This document shows, in pieces, positions 159-59,373 of a stretch of DNA of 64,000 nt (positions are counted from its first letter, which is position 1; the number at the start of each line of letters is the position of its first letter). Source of the stretch: Sphagnum compactum (Eukaryota); assembly GCA_965153455.1 (NCBI GenBank), contig OZ234494.1, forward strand, positions 7,750,001 to 7,814,000, read 5' to 3'. The translations under genes and the position numbers were made by a program. The notes below the pieces were generated by a model, which ran no database searches, was not told the DNA's origin, and saw nothing but the letters and a program-made list of their open reading frames with translations.

Positions 159-1735
<1,577 letters not shown>

Positions 1736-2459
1736 TTTTACTGAGTTGTAAGGTCAGATATGAGAGCTGAGGTGCTGTGGTATTTTGTGGTAGGAGTGCT
1801 GGATGTCAATGGTTCAATGGCAAGCAGAGTTTAAGGTACTACATGTTTAAGGAAGATTATAGTAGAAATGATGTCATGTTGTTTGCATCTTAGACACTGA
1901 TCCTAGAACATGACATCAGCCCTGGATGTATGCTAACAAAAATGTAATATGTTTCCTTAAGTCATAACCAGGAGAGAGATAATACCATTGTAACATAAGT
2001 TAGTACATGATCATGATGCATTTGCACGCAGGTTGTTGTTGATATACTGCTTTGTACTGATACACATTCCTGTATTGTGAATGTTAAGCTTATTGTCTGA
2101 TTACAAGCATGGATACGTACAATTCTTCTAGCTAGGGGTTTCCTATTGCTTCCAGAAATGCAAGAGACTCAGGATGCAGATTTGTAAATGATTTGCCCAA
2201 AATTTTGAGCAAACATCAATTAGTTCTATAGGTAAAAAAAGATTGACAATTCACATGGCTATAATGGACCACAACACGTGCAAGACATGCAAGATCAAAA
2301 TTGGTTAAATTTAGTTTTTGACAATGTAAACATATATCTATGAGCTAAAATTACAAGGAACATCTTTATGATCTTAAATAAACACAAGGTTAATCTTTAA
2401 ATCAATAAAACAATCCAGTGATCTTTTTTGTTATGCCAAATATGAAAGATTGTCCTCCA

Positions 2460-3270
2460 ACATATTGTCAACTTCAATCCCACACAATGACACATGCATA
2501 AGAACATCCAATGTGTCCAGTGTCAAACATGATCAAAGCTGACTCTTTATAACATTTTGCTTGGAAATCTTCGTTCGCATATGGATACACTCATTGAAAT
2601 AACAAGTACCTTTTGCTATAGGTTAATCAAAATTGGCCAATTGGTATGTTAGCAATCATTATGCTCACAAAAAGTGCCATGATTCAATCAAGCCTTAGTT
2701 TTCATATTCACGTTTCAAAGTTTCTAAAAATTCAATTTAACCTTATACAAAGTGCTATCGTTCTCTGAAATCGTGAATATTCTGATCAACCTCTCTAGCC
2801 ATTGGGTTGTCATTTGATGTTGGTCATCATCATCATTGGGATTGCTTAGGATTGACCAACTTTGAAACATTGAAAATTCGTAAGTTGGGAAATTATTCAT
2901 TTAGGTTGTGCACAATTGCCTACACTTACTCTCCAACCATTATTTTTATCTCCTCCAACAAGTCAAGTCATATTTCTTTTTCTCAAGAATATGAGAAGTA
3001 GGTCATTCCTCTAGGATATTAGGCTAGCTATTTTCATTAGATTCCAAACATGAATCATGTCACATTAACATTTCAAAACAATGACTACAAAAAAATTCAC
3101 ATTAGTGACTACATTGTGATTTATAATCACATGTTCACATTGATGCCTTTAAGGCATCAGTGTGTTTATAAACTAATTTCAATAATAATAACAAGCAGCT
3201 CATCGTGTAATGGCTCTACCCAATGTTATATGACCATGATCAATATTTTATTCCAAAGGCCAACTCCTTA
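2460..3270 (-). mobile_element. Degraded hAT-superfamily transposase, C-terminal (dimerisation) region
   Basis: Minus strand 2640-2460 reads NWPILINL*QKVLVISMSVSICERRF/[frameshift]SKQNVIKSQL*SCLTLDTLDVLMHVSLCGIEVDNM. This matches the hAT C-terminal pattern SxxCERxFSxxNxIKxxxRxxLxxxxLDxLM. Upstream HNLNE*FPNLRIF is consistent. Outer limit approximate. Confidence 0.7.
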
Positions 3271-3389
3271 GGAAGGAAGGTAAAGAATTTTTAGGAGTAT
3301 TTTATTTTCAAAAATTGAATATTCTAAATTAATTAATTGTTTGGGAAGCATGTGCCAAACCCGCCAAGGTACTATAGTATATGGAATGT

Positions 3390-3510
3390 TTAGAATTTAA
3401 AATTTTGAAAATTGAAATGTTTGAATTCCGATGTGTCAATAATGAAAGCATTATGTCTAAATACTGAAAACTGAAATGTTTGAATATTGAAAATTGAAAA
3501 TTGAAATGTC
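3390..3510. repeat. AT-rich degenerate short-period repeat (TTGAAAATTGAAATGTTTGAA-like) at the break point of the GST pseudogene
   Basis: Repeated TGAAAA(T/C)TGAAATGTTTGAA units visible directly. Confidence 0.6.
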
Positions 3511-4885
3511 TGATCCAAACACGTTGTGCATATGGGCAGAGAGCACCATAATACAGTTTGTTCACACAAACATCCCCACAAGGTTACTATTTGCTTTGAA
3601 CCTTCAAAACCAAAGTAAAGCTAGAATATATTCAGATATGGGTTGCTACACATATAGGTTGACAGGGTATGTGAACTCTAACACCCAAATTTTGCTCAAG
3701 TCATGATAGATTATTGCATCTAGATACCACAAAATAAAAGAAAAATGATTGATTGACCAATTTCTACCACATCCAAATTGGGCCACAGGGTTTCATCATT
3801 ACCAACAAACAAAAACGAGGTCTAGAAGATCTTGAAAGTAACAATAGAAAATCAGGATAGTACAGGGACCACTGTTGAATTATTGCGAACATAAAGACAT
3901 ATAGAATAAAATTGCTAGAAACTAGTAACTTGCATAGAGCACAACTCAAAACATGGACCGAATGTGCAACAAAGGGGTCACACACCTAGTTGTGCCATCA
4001 AAAAGAGGTGGGCACTCTGACTTAAAGTTTAGGTCTTGGGAATTCACATAGCTACAAATCATCCCTCCCCCACAACCCAATAGGTTTTTAAGTTCCAAAA
4101 TCCCATCACAAATATCACTAACAATCAATAGCCTCTTCCCACAAAAACCAAAGAAGACTAAAACACAAGACAGATATATATATGTGAGATTGCAAAGAAA
4201 TTCAACAAACAACAGGTTGAAGCTAACTATTGTGTCAGTTCTTACAAGAGTAAGATATGGTCATAACCTTATGAGCATCACTCACAAATCATCAAGCTAT
4301 ATCACCTTCACCATGAAGGTTGTTGCGAGTCTTTCCCACTAACTTCATCAACTCTTAAACTGTAGGATAACCACAACACCTTAGACTACACAATTGATTC
4401 TTTTATGAACCACCCATAACAAAATAACAAACAAATATAATTTTTGCCACACTCCAGAAAAATTTGTCATCACCACAGTGCCCTTCTTACAACACAAGAA
4501 TTTGGAAGTGCAGTAGACTACGTGCAAAAAAGAATACACACAACAACAAAATTTTGAATTGGCAGTAGTTTACAGTAAATGCATGCACAAAAAAACCTCT
4601 TTCGATGCATTATTATCTCTTTCTTTCTTTAAACCCAAGAAGAAAGAGGTACATATTTGCAGAGGATATATGTTGGAATGAAATGTAGCTCACATAGAGG
4701 TAGCCGACGCAACAAGAACCAAGAAAAAACCCCTTTTATATATTGATCTATCATGTCTCTCACATACCTATCTTTATGAATTTTAGAATCAATGCTTGCA
4801 CATACCCATCAATGAACTTAGATCATGAAGTAGTTTCAACTATAGTAGTAGTGAGATTGTACCTGGCTACTACTGTTGGAGCCAT
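3511..4885 (-). pseudogene. 5' fragment of a lambda-class glutathione transferase: exon 1 4885-4863, exon 2 4051-3986, partial exon 3 3557-3511
   Basis: In-phase splicing gives MAPTVVAS-YVNSQDLNFKSECPPLFDGTTR-LYYGALCPYAQRVWI, matching the GSTL N-terminus PPLFDGTTRLY...CP(F/Y)AQRVWI. The exon 3 acceptor is AA instead of AG, and similarity stops abruptly in an AT-rich repeat. Confidence 0.85.
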
Positions 4886-48200: not shown

Positions 48201-50878
48201 TGGCCAACCATAAGCTTCTTGGGTGGCAATATGGTGCATGATTGCTAGAAAGTAGATGTTAGGATTTGAGTATATGCATTGATATTGGCTCCTAGAATTT
48301 TATTTACAAAGGAATGAATGTTTCACAGCATACATAATTCATAAATCCAAAATCTGGCCTTACAAATGGTGACTTAAAAGATTGTAAGAACTCCCCTATG
48401 ATATAATAGCCACTGTTGATCATCATGTCTCTTTTTTTTATCACATTCTTTTTCCCTATTCTTGGTGTCGAAAATAGAAGATTGAGATATAAAAATCCCC
48501 TGGGCCAAATTTGAGCTTTGATGGGTTTCAAATTCACCCAAATTTATTGATTAGTGTTAAAACATTGGGATATGGATATTAGTAAATGCAGCAATATTGG
48601 GTGTCGGGGTTTAATTTACCAAAGAATGAAAGTTTGAAAGAATCTAAAGTTTGGCCTTGCAATTTTTTCAAATTTTGGTTGAAAAGATTGCAAAAACTCC
48701 CTACCACATAGCAACCAATATTGTTCATCATGTGTTTATATTTTTATCCCACATTTTTTCCCTACTCTTGGTGCCAAGAGTATACAATTGACACATGTAG
48801 TTTCCAAGCATGTTAGTTAATGTCTCCTTTTACATTAGGAGTCAGGGATAAAAATGCTTGGGTAATTTGATGGGTTTCAAATTCACCCAAATTTGTTCGT
48901 AAATTCAACATCACTACTACCTTAGGGCAATAATAAATTTTCATTATATAAAACAATAACTCAAAGAAATTAATCATTAACAAAGAAATTTTTTCATGAT
49001 TTTTTATAAATATTCATCAAAGCCATCCTTAAGTTTTTTAGGTGACAACAAATTAGTTAAAAACATTTGTGTCTCAAAGATGAATCTTATGTTAAAATGT
49101 TAATTTGCTTTCGATTTTTTGTGTTTTTTTTAGTCAATTCTTGCATAAATTTTGAATTCAGTTTTCGAGATTTAGATTTAAAGGAATTGAAGGTAATTAC
49201 TTGTATATTTCTCAAACGAAATTTATTTTAAAAATAGGACATATGGATAGTTTTTTATAATTCATATTAATATGCCACTTGCTGAAACAAACAACACAAG
49301 TGCCAAGCAAAAAAATAAAAATAAAATGGAGGTATGATTAATTTGGTTACCCAACATTCATATTTGGATAAGAAACCCAACAAGTAGATGGTTGGTGTTC
49401 AAATGAACTTATTTATTGGATGGGTGCACCCAAAATCCACACGTCATACTACATACACATTCTGTGATGTTTCAAGCCTCAGCTCTTGAATCCACACGAA
49501 GTTTATCATCACTTCTCCTTTTGGTTTATAAATTGTTTTACACGTTATGCTGCTTTTTCTTTTAACTATCATCAATATTGTCTTTCTTTGTGGTAGACAT
49601 ATTGAGTAGAGCCAACTTTTCTAGGTGTGTTGTTCACATCATTTAAACCCGTTTCTATCCTTGGTGTTGCTAGTTATGGGCCTTCCTCTTCCTCATTTGT
49701 CATGTTTTCTTCTGGGTTTTGTGTTTTCAACATTGTGCTTCCTTCTTTATCATTTGATTATGTCATTTCGGCATTTACACATGTTGCAAAGTCTTCCTCT
49801 TCCACTTTGCTGGTAATTGTATTGGCCTCCACCAACTAGCCCATTTCCTTGTTGTATGCAAATGTTAGTGTTTCATATGGATCGTGTTTTGCATCTGATT
49901 TGTTTCTTGGCCATTTCTTTTCTAAGATTAAATCGTTTATTTTTTTGGGCGCTTGGAATCCTAAGAGGTAATCGCATCGTTGATGAAGTCTTGTTCTAAA
50001 ATTTTTATTTGTTGAATGTGTTAACCATGGATTGTCTCTAGGTGGTTGTGGCAAGCTGTTCAGAAATTTTGGCATAAACATTTTGATCTTTGTCCCATAT
50101 ATCTTATAGTCTTACAAGTGGTTAGTAGATGCCCAATATCCAACCTCTGCCTGGAACTATGCATCTACATTCTTCAACTTTCCTTTTGTTATAGACGGGT
50201 ACAAATCCAAATTCGATGGTGTTTGACAAAAATGTTGTGGATATGGATATTGTGACATTTTGCAAACGAAAAATTTCTATCCTAGGTTTTTTTGAGTTGA
50301 ACCTTTCAACTTGAAAATAAAATTACACTGAATGCAATTCATAACCCATTTTGGAAACATGTTGGGTTAGTGACATATTTCTAGTTGTCCACTCCAATTT
50401 TTGATTTAGATTTACCATGATATCCATTGGTTTTCATTGGACCAATTGGTTGGTAGTGATGAATTTAGAACAGCAGCATTTGCCACAACGGCTCCTAATG
50501 GAAAAATAACTGCACGTGTATCAACAACCACAAAATCATGTACTTGCATATGATAATCATTTATTGCTTTGATCTTATTTTGTCTATGATTGTTTCCCTC
50601 AATAGTCAATGTGCATTTGTTCAACATGCAATTTTAGTGTTTAAGTTCAGCCTTCCTTTTATTTCTTTTTTTCACAATTGTATATTTCTTTCTAAGATCA
50701 CTATTTTGAAGAAATATTCATATTAACATGTGTATTGCATTATAATTTAATGCAAACAATTGAGTTTTAGTCCCTCCTTCATTTTTCGACATGTCTTCGT
50801 TTTCGACTATTGTACACCTCTTGTGGTTTCGGGGCCAGCCTTATCATCTAACAATTCACAAGCTAGTTTAACACTTTG

Positions 50879-51182
50879 TGTTATGGACCGACTACAAACA
50901 AGTGGAGAATTACAAGACAAGACAAGCTTTATTGACCCATCAACTGGTGTTGATCTGCTAAAGGGTTGTTCCCCAGACTATCTCCTTTTATAACCCTGAG
51001 CCATACTAGTCCCAAAATATCCTAGGCCATGATATTGCCAAAAGTATCCCGAAATATCCTAGGCCATGATATTGCCAAAAGTATCCCAAAATATCCTAGG
51101 CCATGATATTGCCAAAAGTATCCCAAAATATCCTAGGACATGACATTGCCAAAAGTATCCCAAAATATCCTAGGCCATGACA
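50879..51182 (-). repeat. 3' LTR (304 bp; 4 full + 1 partial 37-bp U3 repeats)
   Basis: Identical by eye to 57496-57762 except for one extra CCCAAAATATCCTAGGCCATGATATTGCCAAAAGTAT unit. Confidence 0.97.
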
Positions 51183-54100
51183 TTATCCTCTCCTCAAGCG
51201 ACATCTTCTAGATGGAGCCGGTTTGTTAGGATATCGTTGGTGAAACCGATTAACTAAGTCTTGGGCATGAACTAGGTTTCCAGCAGGCTCCCAAGTAGCT
51301 TCAGAAGGAGGATAACCTCGCCAAAAGACAAGGTACAGGAGCTTTCCACGAATCTTCTTGGAGTCCAAGACCTCCTGAATTTCAAACTCTTCTTGGCCTT
51401 CAATTTCGACTGGAGCTGGGGGTTCTTGATGACGTTCTGGGATCAGGTTTTCATGATAGGGCTCAAGCAGGGAGACATGGAAAACATTGTGGATTTTGAA
51501 CTGGGGTGGAAGCTCCAACTGGCAAGCCACTAGACCAACCAATTTTGCGATTTTGAAAGGTCCGAGGCGCTTGTAATCCAACTTGGCACATGGGCGAGTG
51601 GTAGCAATGTTCTTTCTGAGAAGCCAGACCTTGTCTCCAACCTTGAAGTTTGGATGGTCCTTGCGTCGGCGGTCTGCTTGCTTCTTTTGCCACTCCTGTG
51701 TTAGCTTGAGTTTTGCCATAAGGTTCTGTTGAACCTGTCCAAGCCTCGTGGCCCTTTCTTCAGCCGAGGGGTTTACGGAATCTCCAGGAATTTCAAGGCT
51801 GAACCTGGGATGAAAACCGTAATTGGCAAAGAATGGACTGATCCCGGTCGATGCATGTGTTGTGTTATTATAAGCAAACTCTGCTTGAGATAGTAGGTCC
51901 AGCCAGTCGTCCTGTTGGTAGTTCACAGTGCAGCGAAGGTATTGCTCGAGTGTCTGGTTTGTCCGTTCGGTTTGTCCATCTGTCTCAGGGTGGAAAACTG
52001 AAGATAGCCGAATGTCAACTCCAAGAAGCTCGAATAGACGATGCCAGAACTTGGATGCAAACTGAGGACCTCTGTCGGACACAATTTCCTCGGGGAGTCC
52101 ATGCAGTCGGACGATCCCGTCCAGAATTAATTGAGCTGTCTCTTCTGCCGTGATTGACTTGGAACAAGGGGTGAAATGGGCCATTTTGGTGAGTCGATCA
52201 ACCACAACCAGTATTGAATTCTTGGTTCTGACAATAGGGAGGTCCGTGATGAAGTCCATTGCAATAGATCCCCAAGGTCGGCTAGGAATCGACAGAGGCT
52301 GTAGGAGTCCAAACGGGCGATGCCTGGGAGCTTTGGATCGAGCACATGTATCACTAGACTTGACATATTCCCCTAGCATCTTGTTCATTTTGGGCCACCA
52401 GTAAGTCCTTGACACTAGTTCGTGAGTCCGTGCCATTCCAAAGTGACCTGCCAGGGTGTTGTCGTGGCATTCCCTCAGGATTTTTAGGCGTATAGGTCCT
52501 TCGGGTACATAAATCAGGTTATTTCGAAGGAGAAGTCTGTCTTGCTGCTCAAATTGATCCAAGTCATCACGATTTGGGTTCCTTGGTCGTTCTTGGAGTT
52601 CCTTCTTGATGTTGGTAGCCCAGGTGTCTTCCTCAGTTGCCATCTTGATGTCCCTGACAAGGTATGAGTCTGGGAGGGTGCTGATTGTTGCTGCAACTCG
52701 AAATTGCTTGGGGTTGAGTAAAGTCTGGTTCTGCTGGCCGTAGGCCTCAGCCCCCGCTCGAAGTTCATATTCTGAACGACGAGATAGCGCGTCAGCTTTC
52801 CCTTGCTGGGTGCCGGGTTGATACTGAATCTCAAAGTCGAAATCAGCTAGGAAGATAGACCAGCGTGCCTGGCGACGATTTAAGGTCCGAGTAGTTGTGA
52901 AATAAAGAAGATTCTTGTGATCTGTCAAAACTTGGACTCGATGTTGAGCTCCGGCAAGATACGGTCTCCACTGCTCGAATGCCGTGATGATTGCCAGAAG
53001 TTCCTTATTGTAGACCTGGTAGTTGATTTCGGCACTGGTTAACTTCCGTGAATAAAAAACAACTGGATGCAGCAACCCATCTATTCCAAATTGAGATAGA
53101 ATAGCTCCCAAGGCAAAATCTGAAGCGTCCGTTTCCACAATGAATGGCTTGGCAGGATCGGGATGTATCAGGATGGGTGCAGAGGTGAATGCCATCTTGA
53201 GAGTATCAAAAGCAGCTTGGGCCATTGGATTCCACGAGAAGGGCTTGTCTTTGCAAGTCAGGGTTATTAACGGTGTTGTGATCTTGGAGTAGCCTTTGAT
53301 AAACCGACGATAGAAGTTGGCAAACCCTAGGAAGCGTTGAACGTCCTTGACCGAGGATGGAGTAGCCCAACACTCGATGGTCTCGACCTTTGATTTGTCC
53401 ATGAAAATGCCATCTAGAGAGATCACGTAGCCGAGGAACGCCACTGAAGATTTGTCGAATTCACATTTTTCCAACTTGGTGTATAAGCCATGCTCCCGCA
53501 ACGTCGCAAGCACCAATCGTACATGTTTGTCGTGGGTTTCCTGGTCCTTGGAAAAGATTAAAATGTCATCCAAATAGACCACGACAAATTCGTCCATGTA
53601 ATCCCGGAAGATATCATTCATCAGATGCTGAAAGACTGCGGGTGCATTGGTGAGGCCGAAGGGCATGACCGTGTATTCGAAGTGGCCATAGCGTGTGCGG
53701 AAAGCTGTCTTCCATTCATCACCAGGGCGAATCCTGAGTAAGTTGTAGGCTCCACGGAGGTCAAGCTTGGTGAAGATCTTCCCGGTACGTAGTCGATCTA
53801 GGAGACCTGAAATCAAGGGCAAAGGATATCGATTCTTTTTGGTTATCTTGTTGAGTCCACGATAATCCACACAGAGTCGAAGGGAGCCATCCTTTTTCTT
53901 GACAAACAAAATTGGGGCGCCGGCTGGAGACTTGGAATGCTGAATGAACCCCTTGGCAAGATTTTCAGTAAGGTAATCACGTAGGGCTTGGAGTTCCGGT
54001 TCTGATAGGCCATAGATAGGACCAAAGGGTGGTGAGTGTCCTTCTTCTAGATCAATCGGGCAGTCATATGGACTATGGGCGGGGAGCTGATCAGCATTAA

Positions 54101-54941
54101 TCTTTTCAAAAACATCAACAAAGTCCTTGTACTTCTTGGGAAGTTTGACAGGTGTTGGTTCTGATTGGGGGTTTGTGGTGTTGGCTGGGTTGACATGGAT
54201 GGCGAAGACTTGAAGATTCTTAGCAGCCCGATAGAAAAGGACAGCTCTATCAACGAAGATCTGGACAGGGTTGGTTTTCTGGGCAGGATTCTTGACAAGA
54301 TTCTTGACAGGACAAGGTTTCGTTCTGACCAACCGGGGGTTCTTGACTGCAGGATTTGACATAACAGACTTGATAAAATTGGAATTGGTTCCGACCCTCT
54401 TTGGGTTCTCGACCACAGGGTTCTTGGCAGGACTGGACAAAGTGTTTTTCTGAGCGTGGGGTTCTTGAGAGGTGCATCGTTGTGCGCTGAAGGTGAGGGT
54501 TCTAGATCGTCAATCAATGATAGGGTTGTGTGCTTCTAGCCAAGGCAGACCAAGGATGATGGGATGGTGAGGGGTGGAAATGATGTTGAGAACAATCTTC
54601 TCCGTGTGCTTGCCGATACAGAGTTCTAGAGGGGTTGTCTCGTGTGTGATTGCACCAGAAGCAATGGTTCTCCCATCAATAACCTCTACCGGAACAGGGG
54701 TTGACTTCTTGACCACAGGGATGTTGTGTTGGACGACAAATGTTTGGTCGATGAAAGAAGAGGTGGCGCCGGAGTCCACCAAAGCTGACACTTGTGGTAT
54801 GTCTTCTGGAATACGAATGATGTCCACATACTAAGTGAAACTGGGACTGGGACCAACAGCGGAACAGGAGCCTTTGCAAAGGTGGTGTTGGGTGAGATCC
54901 AGTCGCACGGCTCCTACTATGACTGGATGTTCTTGTTTTCC
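51183..54941 (-). CDS. pol: pol polyprotein (aspartic protease, RT, RNase H, integrase, chromodomain) in the -1 frame relative to gag; interrupted by in-frame stops at 54833-54831 and 54512-54510
   Basis: ALVDSGATSSF (PR); LCVDYRGLN, KLDLRGAY, MPFGLTNAPA, VYLDDILI (RT); ETDASD (RH); H..GH, MDFITDLP, SDRGPQF, ETDGQTER, GPF (IN); FEIQEVLDSK..LYLVFWRGY..EATWEP (chromodomain). ORFs 54831-55037, 54510-54827 and 51183-54440 share one frame. Confidence 0.95.
54866..54941 (-). promoter_or_regulatory. Predicted -1 programmed ribosomal frameshift signal (G_GAA_AAC + 6-nt spacer + H-type pseudoknot)
   Basis: Heptamer at 54941-54935. Stem 1 AUCCAGUC (54928-54921)/GACUGGAU (54904-54897). Stem 2 AGGAGCC (54915-54909)/GGCUCCU (54872-54866). 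Confidence 0.75.
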
Positions 54942-55888
54942 AACTCCTGGGGAGTTTCCACAGCTTGTACCTGAAGTTTGACAAGCTTTTGAGGGCATTG
55001 ACGAGTTATATGCCCTGGGTTGCCACAGTAAAGACATAGATTGTTTGTCCTTCGGCGAAGTTTCTCGGCTTCTGTCAAAGATTTAAACTTAGCTGTGTCG
55101 ATCTGCATCGGAGCAGGTCCAAAAGAGGCAGGTCGGGCAACTGGTGTTGTTTGGGGAACTAAGGGGAGCGTAGTAGGCCGACTGTTCCAAAGCTGGGCGT
55201 TGGAGGTGACTTTCTTTTCCTGGCGACGTTCGAATAGACGATTATCGCACCGAATTGCCTGGGTGATGGCTTCACTGAAGGAAGAAGGGTCTGCGAGTGT
55301 CAACAAAAGATCTTGAACATCATCACGAAGCCCACAGCGAAACTGATCAATCAAGGCAGCTTCTCCCCAATTGACGTCACAAGCAAGCTGCCTGAATTCT
55401 GAGGCATAGACGATGGCCGAACGTGTCCCTTGCTGGAGGCGACGCAGCTTGTTGGTTGAAGTCCTGGCCTTATCACTGTCCCCAAATACTGCTTCAAATT
55501 CCGCCATAAAGGCGTTGAAATCTTGTAGAAGAGGGGATGATGTTTCCAGGATGGGAGCAAACCATGCTGCAGCTGTCCCAGTGAGTAGGGTTCCAACGAA
55601 TCCTACACGAGTGGTGTCATCAAAATAACGACGGGGGTGTAGTTGCATGATCAGGCGTACCTGGCTGACAAAGCCTCGAAATTTGAGGCGCGTTCCATCA
55701 AACTTTTCTGGCAGACTGATCTTGGGCTCTTGGGCGGCCATTGCAAGAGCAGGAAGTACTGGGGTAGGAGGTGGTGGCTGATTCTGTAGGCGGGTCACCG
55801 AGTCTCTAAGCACGGCATTTTCTTGTTGAAGGTGCTGAAGGGCGGCGAGGATTTGAGTGAGATCGATGTTGGATTCTGAGTTGTCCAT
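54917..55888 (-). CDS. gag: Gag (323 aa): Ty3-type capsid with CCHC zinc knuckle
   Basis: ATG in ACCATGG context; PEKFDG...LLTGTAAAW...LQQGTRSAIVYASEF...FRCGL; PMQID; CLYCGNPGHITRQC; ends in TAG TAG. Confidence 0.95.
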   Translation of the reverse strand: MDNSESNIDLTQILAALQHLQQENAVLRDSVTRLQNQPPPPTPVLPALAMAAQEPKISLPEKFDGTRLKFRGFVSQVRLIMQLHPRRYFDDTTRVGFVGTLLTGTAAAWFAPILETSSPLLQDFNAFMAEFEAVFGDSDKARTSTNKLRRLQQGTRSAIVYASEFRQLACDVNWGEAALIDQFRCGLRDDVQDLLLTLADPSSFSEAITQAIRCDNRLFERRQEKKVTSNAQLWNSRPTTLPLVPQTTPVARPASFGPAPMQIDTAKFKSLTEAEKLRRRTNNLCLYCGNPGHITRQCPQKLVKLQVQAVETPQELENKNIQS

Positions 55889-55926
55889 GGTGGTAGTTCT
55901 CACACTTTTGCGCTTTCAATCTTCAA

Positions 55927-57353
55927 ACTTGAAACTTCAGATGCTTGGATCTCTCTCAATACAAGTCCAAATGACATGAAATTTCTCTCACACATATATT
56001 CCTATATGATCTATAAGATCACAAAGTTACAGACCTAAAAAAACTTAAACAAAGGAGATATGACCAAAAAACCAGATCTGCACTTGAAACTTCAGATGCT
56101 TGGATATCTCTCAATATAAGTCCAAATGACATGAAATTTCTCTCACACATATATTCGTATATGATCTATAAGATCACAAAGTTACAGACCCAAAAAAGCT
56201 TACACAAAGGAGATATGACCAAAAACCAGATCTGCACTTGAAACTTCAGATGCTTGAATCTCTCTCAATACAAGTGCAAATGACATGAAATTTCTTTCAC
56301 ACATATATTCGTATATGATATATAAGATCACAAAGTTACAGACCCAAAAAAGCTTACACAAAGGAGATATGACCAAAAAACCAGATCTGCACTTGAAACT
56401 TCAGATGCTTGAATCTCTCTCAATACAAGTGCAAATGACATGAAATTTCTTTCACACATATATTCGTATATGATATATAAGATCACAAAGTTACAGACCC
56501 AAAAAAGCTTACACAAAGGAGATATGACCAAAAAACCAGATCTGCACTTGAAACTTCAGATGCTTGAATCTCTCTCAATACAAGTCGAAATGACATGAAA
56601 TTTCTCTCACACATATATTCGTATATGATCTATAAGATCACAAAGTTACATACCCAAAAAAGCTTACACAAAGGAGATATGACCAAAAAACCAGATCTGC
56701 ACTTGAAACTTCAGATGCTTGGATCTCTCTCAATACAAGTCCAAATGACATGAAATTTCTCTCACACATATATTCGTATATGATCTATAAGATCACAAAG
56801 TTACATACCCAAAAAAGCTTACACAAAGGAGATATGACCAAAAAACCAGATCTGCACTTGAAACTTCAGATGCTTGGATCTCTCTCAATACAAGTCCAAA
56901 TGACATGAAATTTCTTTCACACATATATTCGTATATGATCTATAAGATCACAAAGTTACAGACCCAAAAAAGCTTACACAAAGGAGATATGACCAAAAAA
57001 CCAGATCTGCACTTGAAACTTCAGATGCTTGGATCTCTCTCAATACAAGTCCAAATGACATGAAATTTCTCTCACACATATATTCGTATATGATCTATAA
57101 GATCACAAAGTTACATACCCAAAAAAGCTTACACAAAGGAGATATGACCAAAAAACCAGATCTGCACTTGAAACTTCAGATGCTTGGATCTCTCTCAATA
57201 CAAGTCCAAATGACATGAAATTTCTTTCACACATATATTCGTATATGATCTATAAGATCACAAAGTTACAGACCCAAAAAAGCTTACACAAAGGAGATAT
57301 GACCAAAAAACCAGATCTGCACTTGAAACTTCAGATGCTTGGATCTCTCTCAA
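55927..57353. repeat. Tandem array of 155-bp monomers (9 full + partial) inside the retrotransposon 5' leader
   Basis: ACTTGAAACTTCAGATG starts at 55927, 56082, 56236, 56391, 56546, 56701, 56856, 57011, 57166, 57321. Confidence 0.98.
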
Positions 57354-57483
57354 AACATATCCTTTTCTTTTGAAACTTTGAGAGTAGAAGCGTCCTATAG
57401 TCTTCTATAACCTTTTCCAAGTTTCACTCCAATATACCTCTAGCTACTTACTGAAACAACAAAACAAACAAACAAGAAGAAGG

Positions 57484-57493
57484 AGCAGATCAA
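57484..57493 (-). promoter_or_regulatory. Primer-binding site complementary to the element's own R-region 5' end (self-priming type)
   Basis: TTGATCTGCT lies 2 nt inside the 5' LTR end and is complementary to AGCAGATCAA at 57576-57567. No TGG-initiated tRNA PBS is present. Confidence 0.75.
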
Positions 57494-57495
57494 AC

Positions 57496-57762
57496 TGTTA
57501 TGGACCGACTACAAACAAGTGGAGAATTACAAGACAAGACAAGCTTTATTGACCCATCAACTGGTGTTGATCTGCTAAAGGGTTGTTCCCCAGACTATCT
57601 CCTTTTATAACCCTGAGCCATACTAGTCCCAAAATATCCTAGGCCATGATATTGCCAAAAGTATCCCGAAATATCCTAGGCCATGATATTGCCAAAAGTA
57701 TCCCAAAATATCCTAGGACATGACATTGCCAAAAGTATCCCAAAATATCCTAGGCCATGACA
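57496..57762 (-). repeat. 5' LTR (267 bp; 3 full + 1 partial 37-bp U3 repeats; TATAAAA at 57609-57603; AATAAA at 57550-57545)
   Basis: Direct comparison with the 3' LTR; TATA and polyA motifs read on the minus strand. Confidence 0.97.
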
Positions 57763-58556
57763 CTTTGTTCCTTAATTATTGTGGCACCCAATCTCGCTTG
57801 CTTGAAGTTGCATAAAATTGTCTTTTGGGTTTCATGAATTTTATTGATAGTAAGTTACTAAGGGTTATCAAATCTTCTATCGACAAATCGTTAAGTAAAC
57901 TTGTGAAAAAATGTTCTGGAATTGACTTCTTCAAACTCGCACATTCTTTGAAGAAATCCATGGCATGTGTAAACATTGCCAAATTGTAATCTTCCATATC
58001 TTCCTTGAAAATGTGTACAATCTATTTAAATAATGCAAAACTTTTTTTGTTTATCTTTGCATTAGCCCATTGCCATGCCGCCCATTCATATGTTTTGTCA
58101 ATTACCTTTTTCCATTTTGTTCCCCATGTTTCGATTTTGAACAAATGCCAAAGGGGGTTTAGTCTGGTATCATCTCTTGGATATTCCAACGGGTTTTTTT
58201 GTCATTTCACAAATTTTATTTAGTATGGTTGAGATTAATGTGTATTCAATCATTGATTCCAAAGTGTTTGGTGTGACATTTGGTCTCAGTTTTCTTCTTC
58301 CCATTGTACAATAAAGGTTTCATGATTACAAACACGTGGTAGAGGTAGAAAGGATTCAACTAAACAATAAGGGTAGAATAAATGTAACTTCAGGTATAGA
58401 TTGGGAAAATTAGTAGTAGAGGGGGGAAAATGCAATTTGATTGTACAAGTTGCAAGAATGGTGCTAAATGCAAGAGGTTGAGAATGTGAATGAAAATAAC
58501 GAATAATTTGAAATGGTATAAACAATGTTAAGTGTTAGTGGCTACTTGGTATTGTT

Positions 58557-58734
58557 TCAATTCTTAATGGGCACATGCCTCTTGGTGGTGAATGGGTAAT
58601 GTATGGATTGGCACATACCTTTTGGTGGGTCACTAGGTTTATAATTAAGTATTGTTGTCTCAATTCCTAATGGGCACATGCTTCTTGGTGGTGAATGGGT
58701 AGTGTATGGATTGGCACATACCTATTGGTGGGTC
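58557..58734. repeat. Direct duplication of ~75 bp (period ~103 bp)
   Basis: TCAATTC(T/C)TAATGGGCACATGC..CTTGGTGGTGAATGGGTA.TGTATGGATTGGCACATACCT.TTGGTGGGTCA occurs twice. Confidence 0.85.
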
Positions 58735-59373
58735 AACATGTTTATATGCCACTGAATTGGATTTAGTTCAAAATTTGAAATGGTTTAAATGTTGCAAAAA
58801 TTCATGTTAAGGAAATATGAAGTATAAATTGAAAATTGCATTAACATGTTCAAGATAAACGAACATGAAATTATTCCATCCTATTTCTTTTGTTCAATTT
58901 TTTGCAAAAACAATTTTGTTGCCAACATTCATTTGAAAGTTCATCCATTTGATTTATCATCCATTTATCATCTAAGAATATCATTAATCCATGACATGTG
59001 GTAGAATATTCCTCCATGTCATCAAATATTTTGTTTCGTGTGTCAAATAGTATTTTGTCGATGTTAGCAAGATATTCCTGAAAAGATTCACTTGGGCTCA
59101 CTTGTTCACACCCATGTGTTCATTGCTTATGCTCACAAGATAACAACCCTGTGGACAAACACAAACACTTATAAAATACCATGCAAAATTAATGCATTTA
59201 ATCCACTTTTTGAAATCATGATTTTATAATTGTGTTTAAGAACATATTTCATTTAGAACAATGTTATAATCATTTCAAAATCGTTAATTATGGTATTTTC
59301 CACCCAAAAAATTACAAAAAGTTATTTAATTTTTTTTTTTTGAATAGGATTGAGATCGATAATTTCATAACAT

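Follow-up and report, generated by a model that had tools for sequence, protein, structure and literature searches.

A moss Ty3/gypsy chromovirus that probably primes reverse transcription with the 5' end of its own RNA

The window, by which we mean the whole 64-kb stretch of DNA that was analyzed, contains a recently inserted Ty3/gypsy chromovirus, a 6.9-kb LTR retrotransposon on the minus strand (57762-50879), and this is the sole LTR retrotransposon of such a type within it. Its sequence indicates that the primer for minus-strand cDNA synthesis is probably the RNA of the element itself and not a tRNA, and we give this reading a probability of roughly 0.85. Tf1-type self-priming in a moss chromovirus is not new, and mechanism, clade, and the moss prediction have all been published. 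The window supplies a clean base-level example of it in a plant chromovirus, with an unusually clear compensatory comparison, and the result lends support to the prediction already made for the Tcn1 clade.

The features of the element are listed in Table 1. A global alignment of the LTR pair gave no mismatches over 267 aligned nt, and the sole difference between the 5' and 3' LTRs was one additional 37-nt U3 repeat in the 3' LTR. The R region likely ends about 10-30 nt past the AATAAA. The order of the pol domains was RVP_2, RVT_1, RT_RNaseH, Integrase_H2C2, rve, SH3_Tf2-1, and Chromo (E = 2e-13), that is, the Ty3/gypsy order with a C-terminal chromodomain.

Table 1. Features of the element and its flanks, with positions numbered along the forward strand of the window
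Feature	Position	Strand	Basis or remark
Target-site duplication CAAAG, 5' side	57763-57767	(-)	Flank comparison
5' LTR, 267 nt, TGTCATGG...CCATAACA	57496-57762	(-)	Direct repeat with 3' LTR
37-nt tandem repeats, U3 of 5' LTR, 3.6 copies	57627-57760	(-)	Tandem repeat detection
TATAAAA box	57603-57609	(-)	Sequence; LTR position 154
AGCAGATCAA, predicted first 10 nt of transcript (start of R), putative self-primer	57567-57576	(-)	RNA 5' end predicted
CACCAGTT block, directly 3' of primer arm	57559-57566	(-)	Identical in L001 and L002
AATAAA, likely polyadenylation signal	57545-57550	(-)	LTR position 213; putative role
GT spacer, LTR end to primer-binding site	57494-57495	(-)	Sequence
Primer-binding site TTGATCTGCT	57484-57493	(-)	Complementary to 57576-57567
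155-nt tandem array, leader between primer-binding site and gag	55927-57357	(-)	9.2 copies, 97% matches
gag open frame, 332 codons between stops	54917-55915	(-)	Retrotrans_gag/Ty3 capsid, CCHC knuckle; TAG 54919-54917
pol frame start, -1 relative to gag, overlaps gag end	54831-55082	(-)	In-frame TAG 54833-54831 before protease
Aspartic protease (RVP_2)	54510-54830	(-)	Domain match; closed by in-frame TGA 54512-54510
RT, RNase H, integrase (H2C2, rve, SH3_Tf2-1), C-terminal chromodomain	51183-54509	(-)	1108 codons
Polypurine tract GAGGAGAGGA	51186-51195	(-)	Overlaps pol end, 3 nt before 3' LTR; putative role
37-nt tandem repeats, U3 of 3' LTR, 4.7 copies	51010-51184	(-)	Tandem repeat detection
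3' LTR, 304 nt	50879-51182	(-)	Direct repeat; own AGCAGATCAA copy at 50959-50950
Target-site duplication CAAAG, 3' side	50874-50878	(-)	Flank comparison

The 5' LTR ends in CCATAACA and is followed by GT and then by TTGATCTGCT, which is complementary to AGCAGATCAA at 10 of 10 nt. The distance from the first T of the TATAAAA (57609) to the start of the AGCAGATCAA arm is 33 nt. The initial annotation had placed the primer-binding site (PBS), its complement, and the TATA box at these positions with this spacing, and every one of its coordinates proved right on the minus strand. It had also stated that a tRNA-type PBS with TGG is missing. We found no TGG within the 56 nt after the 5' LTR, which means that a PBS complementary to the CCA end of a tRNA is absent. 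The element thus lacks the TGG-type PBS for tRNA-Met by which the seed-plant chromoviruses Tekay, CRM, Reina, and Galadriel are recognized. No tRNA genes were detected in the 64-kb window or in the 103 related loci described below.

Shuffles of the LTR (mononucleotide) yielded a complement of at least 10 nt to the 16 nt that follow it in 7 of 5000 cases, and this was before requiring the spacing of about 33 nt from the TATA box. Over the 6.3-kb interior, three distinct 10-mers had a complement in the LTR: the PBS, one in the 155-nt unit, and one in pol. By an arithmetic estimate, about 1.5 such 10-mers are expected by chance, and because three against about 1.5 is roughly the chance level, it is the location of the match, and not its mere existence, that counts. 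Both the minimum-free-energy and the centroid folds of R-U5-PBS paired the 5' end with the PBS, in the window and in the related locus L002 alike. The stability of the window fold was ordinary (z = -1.02; 32 of 200 shuffles folded as well), and the L002 fold was more stable than its shuffles (z = -3.21; 0 of 200 as good). If the complementarity of the window copy were a coincidence, the two further interior 10-mers and the unremarkable fold energy of its leader would be in keeping with it; the rarity of the match in shuffled LTRs, the compensatory pattern in L002, and the number of related loci with the same arrangement (20 of 80, against a shuffle mean of 0.7) speak against coincidence, which we regard as scarcely credible.

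The locus L002 is the closest relative that has a 5' end, with 67% pol identity. Its LTR starts with TGTCATGG and ends in TTAACA, after which come GT and TTGTTCACCTT. The exactly complementary arm, AAGGTGAACAA, is located 31 nt downstream of the T of a TATAAAT and immediately precedes CACCAGTT. The corresponding stretches of the window are AGCAGATCAA running into CACCAGTT, and AACAGT running into TTGATCTGCT. Because these flanks are identical, the register of the arms is fixed; it was read from the flanks, and a MAFFT alignment of the LTR-PBS stretch of the window and L002 shifted the 5' arms against each other. Numbered from these flanks, arm positions 4, 7, and 8 have changed on both sides and all three pairs are kept, which makes three double changes and no one-sided change. 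L002 has an eleventh base pair, compared with 10 in the window. L001, from nearly the same family as L002, carries AAGGTGAACAA followed by CACCAGTT after the TATA box of its 3' LTR.

A wider survey was done with 80 loci from metagenome contigs, scanned with a pol alignment; 23 more came from two scans of viral contigs, for a total of 103; one of these two scans, made with the single protein, gave two distant loci only. A strict filter required an exact pair of at least 9 nt, a CA located 0-3 nt upstream of the 3' arm, and a TATA-like box located 20-42 nt upstream of the 5' arm. It was passed by 20 of the 80 loci, whereas twenty rounds of dinucleotide shuffling let through 0-2 loci (mean 0.7). 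Among the 20 passing loci, the distance from TATA to arm was 31-38 nt, the offset from CA to PBS was 2 nt in 16, and the PBS arms were of 16 different sequences, every one of them matched by a complement of its own. A single compensated pair distinguishes L081 from L082. The window values (33 nt, offset 2, 10 nt) fall in the middle of this range. The remaining 60 loci failed the filter, and many of them may lack a 5' LTR. The signal was separated from noise only once the condition on the TATA distance was added: unfiltered CA-anchored complements of at least 10 nt occurred in 32 of 80 loci and in 25 of 80 reversed sequences, which is hardly better. With LTR boundaries taken from BLAST alone, several of them visibly imprecise, the 17 two-LTR loci included four in which the zone after the LTR had a complement of at least 9 nt within the LTR (12, 12, 10, and 9), six in which it had 8 nt in a constant position, and seven in which it had no more than 7 nt. 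Compensatory change has preserved the complementarity in diverged relatives, both in L002 and across the passing loci.

These comparisons also bear on the possibility that a fragment of a host tRNA (one half of it or an internal piece, as in certain copia lineages) acts as primer and that the match to the LTR is incidental. Half-tRNA PBSs are known in plant LTR elements, where, according to the survey by Neumann et al. (2019), they make up about 2% and are confined to Ty1/copia lineages (PMC6317226). A tRNA model does not predict that the L002 PBS should differ at 3 of 10 positions while the LTR arm has changed in exactly the complementary way, nor that each of 16 different PBS arms in relatives should find its complement roughly 33 nt downstream of a TATA box. 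We consider priming by a tRNA fragment highly improbable.

In the mechanism that we propose, transcription would start at or near 57576, judging by the 33-nt spacing from the TATA box only. The first 10 nt of the RNA (AGCAGAUCAA) would loop back across some 70 nt of R and U5 to form a 10-bp duplex with UUGAUCUGCU, 2 nt past the end of the LTR. By analogy with Tf1, the RNase H of the element would cut the RNA just 3' of the duplex, before the conserved CACCAGUU, and the freed 10-mer would be extended by reverse transcriptase through U5 and R. The tRNA-independent self-priming proposed in the initial annotation is supported by the absent TGG, the compensatory change, and the affinity of the protein described below.

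The pairing of the 5' end with the PBS could also be real and selected and yet serve another role, such as RNA circularization for packaging, dimerization, or translation control, with a different molecule as primer. What is observed is the pairing, from which priming is predicted; in addition, Novikova et al. (2010) report that neither kind of PBS was found in SM-Tcn1 of Selaginella (PMC2864245). Against another role stand the location of the 3' arm at the exact place of a PBS, 2 nt past the LTR end in the window and in 16 of 20 relatives, the lack of any alternative PBS candidate after the LTR, and the experimental demonstration that in Tf1 the same arrangement provides the primer (PMC7175516). 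Such a role is very unlikely, and self-priming is the reading that we retain.

The founding examples of self-priming among Ty3/gypsy elements are those of fission yeasts. In Tf1, the PBS is bound by the initial 11 bases of the RNA, and the RNase H cut falls between bases 11 and 12 (PMC7175516); for Tj1 of Schizosaccharomyces japonicus self-priming was read from the same kind of complementarity (PMC4600332). Like the element described here, Tf1/Tf2 of Schizosaccharomyces pombe and Tj1 have, just past the 5' LTR, a PBS that complements the first bases of their own RNA, and no tRNA PBS; they also share the gag-PR-RT-RH-IN order and a chromodomain at the end of the integrase. The element differs from Tf1 in its duplex (10 bp instead of 11 bp), in its plant host, and in that its priming is predicted. 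Its gag and pol are in different frames (-1), unlike those of Tf1, which form a single frame. A Tf1-like self-priming has also been proposed for Tcn1 of Cryptococcus neoformans and for vertebrate sushi elements (PMC7175516, PMC4600332). The element resembles this Tcn1/sushi group in that fish and fungal proteins are among its named relatives, and the hosts differ.

Another close parallel is the plant Tcn1 clade (PpatensLTR, SM-Tcn1; 'chromovirus|Tcn1' in REXdb), which likewise consists of chromoviruses of non-seed plants, mostly without a tRNA PBS. For most moss and club-moss chromoviruses of the Tcn1 clade, which cluster with the fungal and vertebrate Tf1/sushi elements, Neumann et al. (2019) describe the lack of a tRNA PBS and predict self-priming (PMC6317226). 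Because that prediction already covers the plant Tcn1 clade, self-priming is not new here, and the family of the element may already be listed among the PBS types given for the elements in that study. The window copy differs from this clade in its 1.4-kb leader tandem array and its two in-frame stops, and the clear pairing of its arms contrasts with SM-Tcn1, in which neither type of PBS was detected (PMC2864245). Another plant LTR lineage with predicted self-priming is the TAR lineage of Ty1/copia (Houba, Osr-1) (PMC6317226); it belongs to another superfamily, with the copia domain order and no chromodomain, and is unrelated to the element beyond RT. A full-text literature search found no experimental test of self-priming in a plant.

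The pol protein had 7991 matches, the best of them 59-66% identical and located on contigs of 5-6 kb. The named relatives among the best 120 of the 7991 were from Closterium, a chytrid, a mucoromycete, and a catfish, with 42-57% pol identity, and no seed-plant name occurred among these 120. In a FastTree tree of 106 rows, which contained no named Tf1, sushi, Tcn1, or seed-plant references and from which L002 was absent (below the coverage limit), the window fell in a starred group of five rows with L001 and three proteins, adjoining a chytrid protein. The nearest named rows were Powellomyces and Cunninghamella, with fish and Closterium further off. The nearest Atlas clusters were Basidiomycota, Streptophyta, and Chordata, and the PDB and Atlas searches indicated a Ty3-like polyprotein and nothing further. 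The chromodomain reads EFEIQEV...YLVFWRGY, with F, W, and Y at the putative places of the aromatic cage. A complete aromatic cage is reported for 95% of Tcn1-clade elements (PMC6317226). The protein sequence therefore lies nearest to fungal, vertebrate, and algal chromoviruses, in agreement with the fungal-related affinity first suggested for the element, and is probably that of a Ty3/gypsy chromovirus of the Tf1/sushi-Tcn1 kind. The result bears on the old question of whether non-seed plants acquired the Tcn1 clade from fungi by horizontal transfer.

The pol frame, in -1 and overlapping the end of gag, is common to the window element and L002, and pol of L002 is open across both stop sites (TAG, TGA) of the window copy. 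With two in-frame stops in pol, the window copy could at best use proteins from other members of its family. The combination of mismatch-free LTRs with two stops suggests that the copy is defective, was mobilized by its relatives, and was inserted very recently; the stops may also have arisen by mutation after insertion, or be read through. A stop at the end of gag is described for Tj1 (PMC4600332). It is doubtful that the window copy represents a non-autonomous derivative that moves in trans, or that its stop or stops are read through by design like the gag stop of Tj1. If a derivative moved in trans were the case, the self-primer/PBS pair and the LTRs would suffice for mobilization in a moss; if the stops were read through by design, the leader array would be an addition in cis that a self-priming leader tolerates or even benefits from.

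L002 is without the 155-nt array, and about 45 nt separate its PBS from the gag ATG. Each 155-nt unit of the window contains a 10-mer complementary to LTR positions 158-167, which adjoin the TATA box, and this may be due to chance. In the RNA run X18, an 878-nt contig covers 57300-57432 and "goes back 58"; the array therefore occurs in RNA libraries.

The RNA data came from contigs of three metatranscriptome runs, which are short over 57300-57900 and in which no transcription start near 57576 was seen. Within the same interval, neither these runs nor one DNA run had a molecule start or end that was informative on the transcription start. In the RNA contigs, U3 is continuous with the end of pol and the polypurine tract, as loose ends in X15 and X18 at 57762 indicate, and the 3' LTR is therefore present in RNA libraries. 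Variant rows occurred at 57544, 57553, 57577, and 57581 and in neither arm, a missing row being no proof of sameness. Six RNA runs contained 26-33% of the words of the element, and their labels were moss or plant metagenome. Contigs of relatives with terminal repeats were considered as R-to-R transcripts and rejected: because they start at arbitrary places in the LTR, the repeats are assembly overlaps and not R.

The RNA run X15 had loose ends at 57475 and 57507, which flank the end of U5, the GT, and the PBS region. If both ends belong to one contig, as we infer, they suggest a contig that shares just this region with the element and is unlike it on both sides. It may belong to a different family with the same PBS.

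A PBS-like copy, GTTCACCTTG, is located between the TATA box and the predicted start in L002 (1970-1996) and L001 (4408-4436), where together with the primer arm it forms a hairpin that spans the predicted start site. The window element has no such second copy between its TATA box and predicted start.

The family of the element is high-copy in the DNA run X2, with LTRs in excess over interiors: the depth was about 1000-4700 in the LTR and about 270-440 in the leader. The flank adjoining the 5' LTR (57783-57900) had zero depth in this run, a hole in coverage that proves nothing by itself. Further upstream, at 58552-58746, the flank contains two 92-nt direct repeats that are 91% alike and 103 nt apart.
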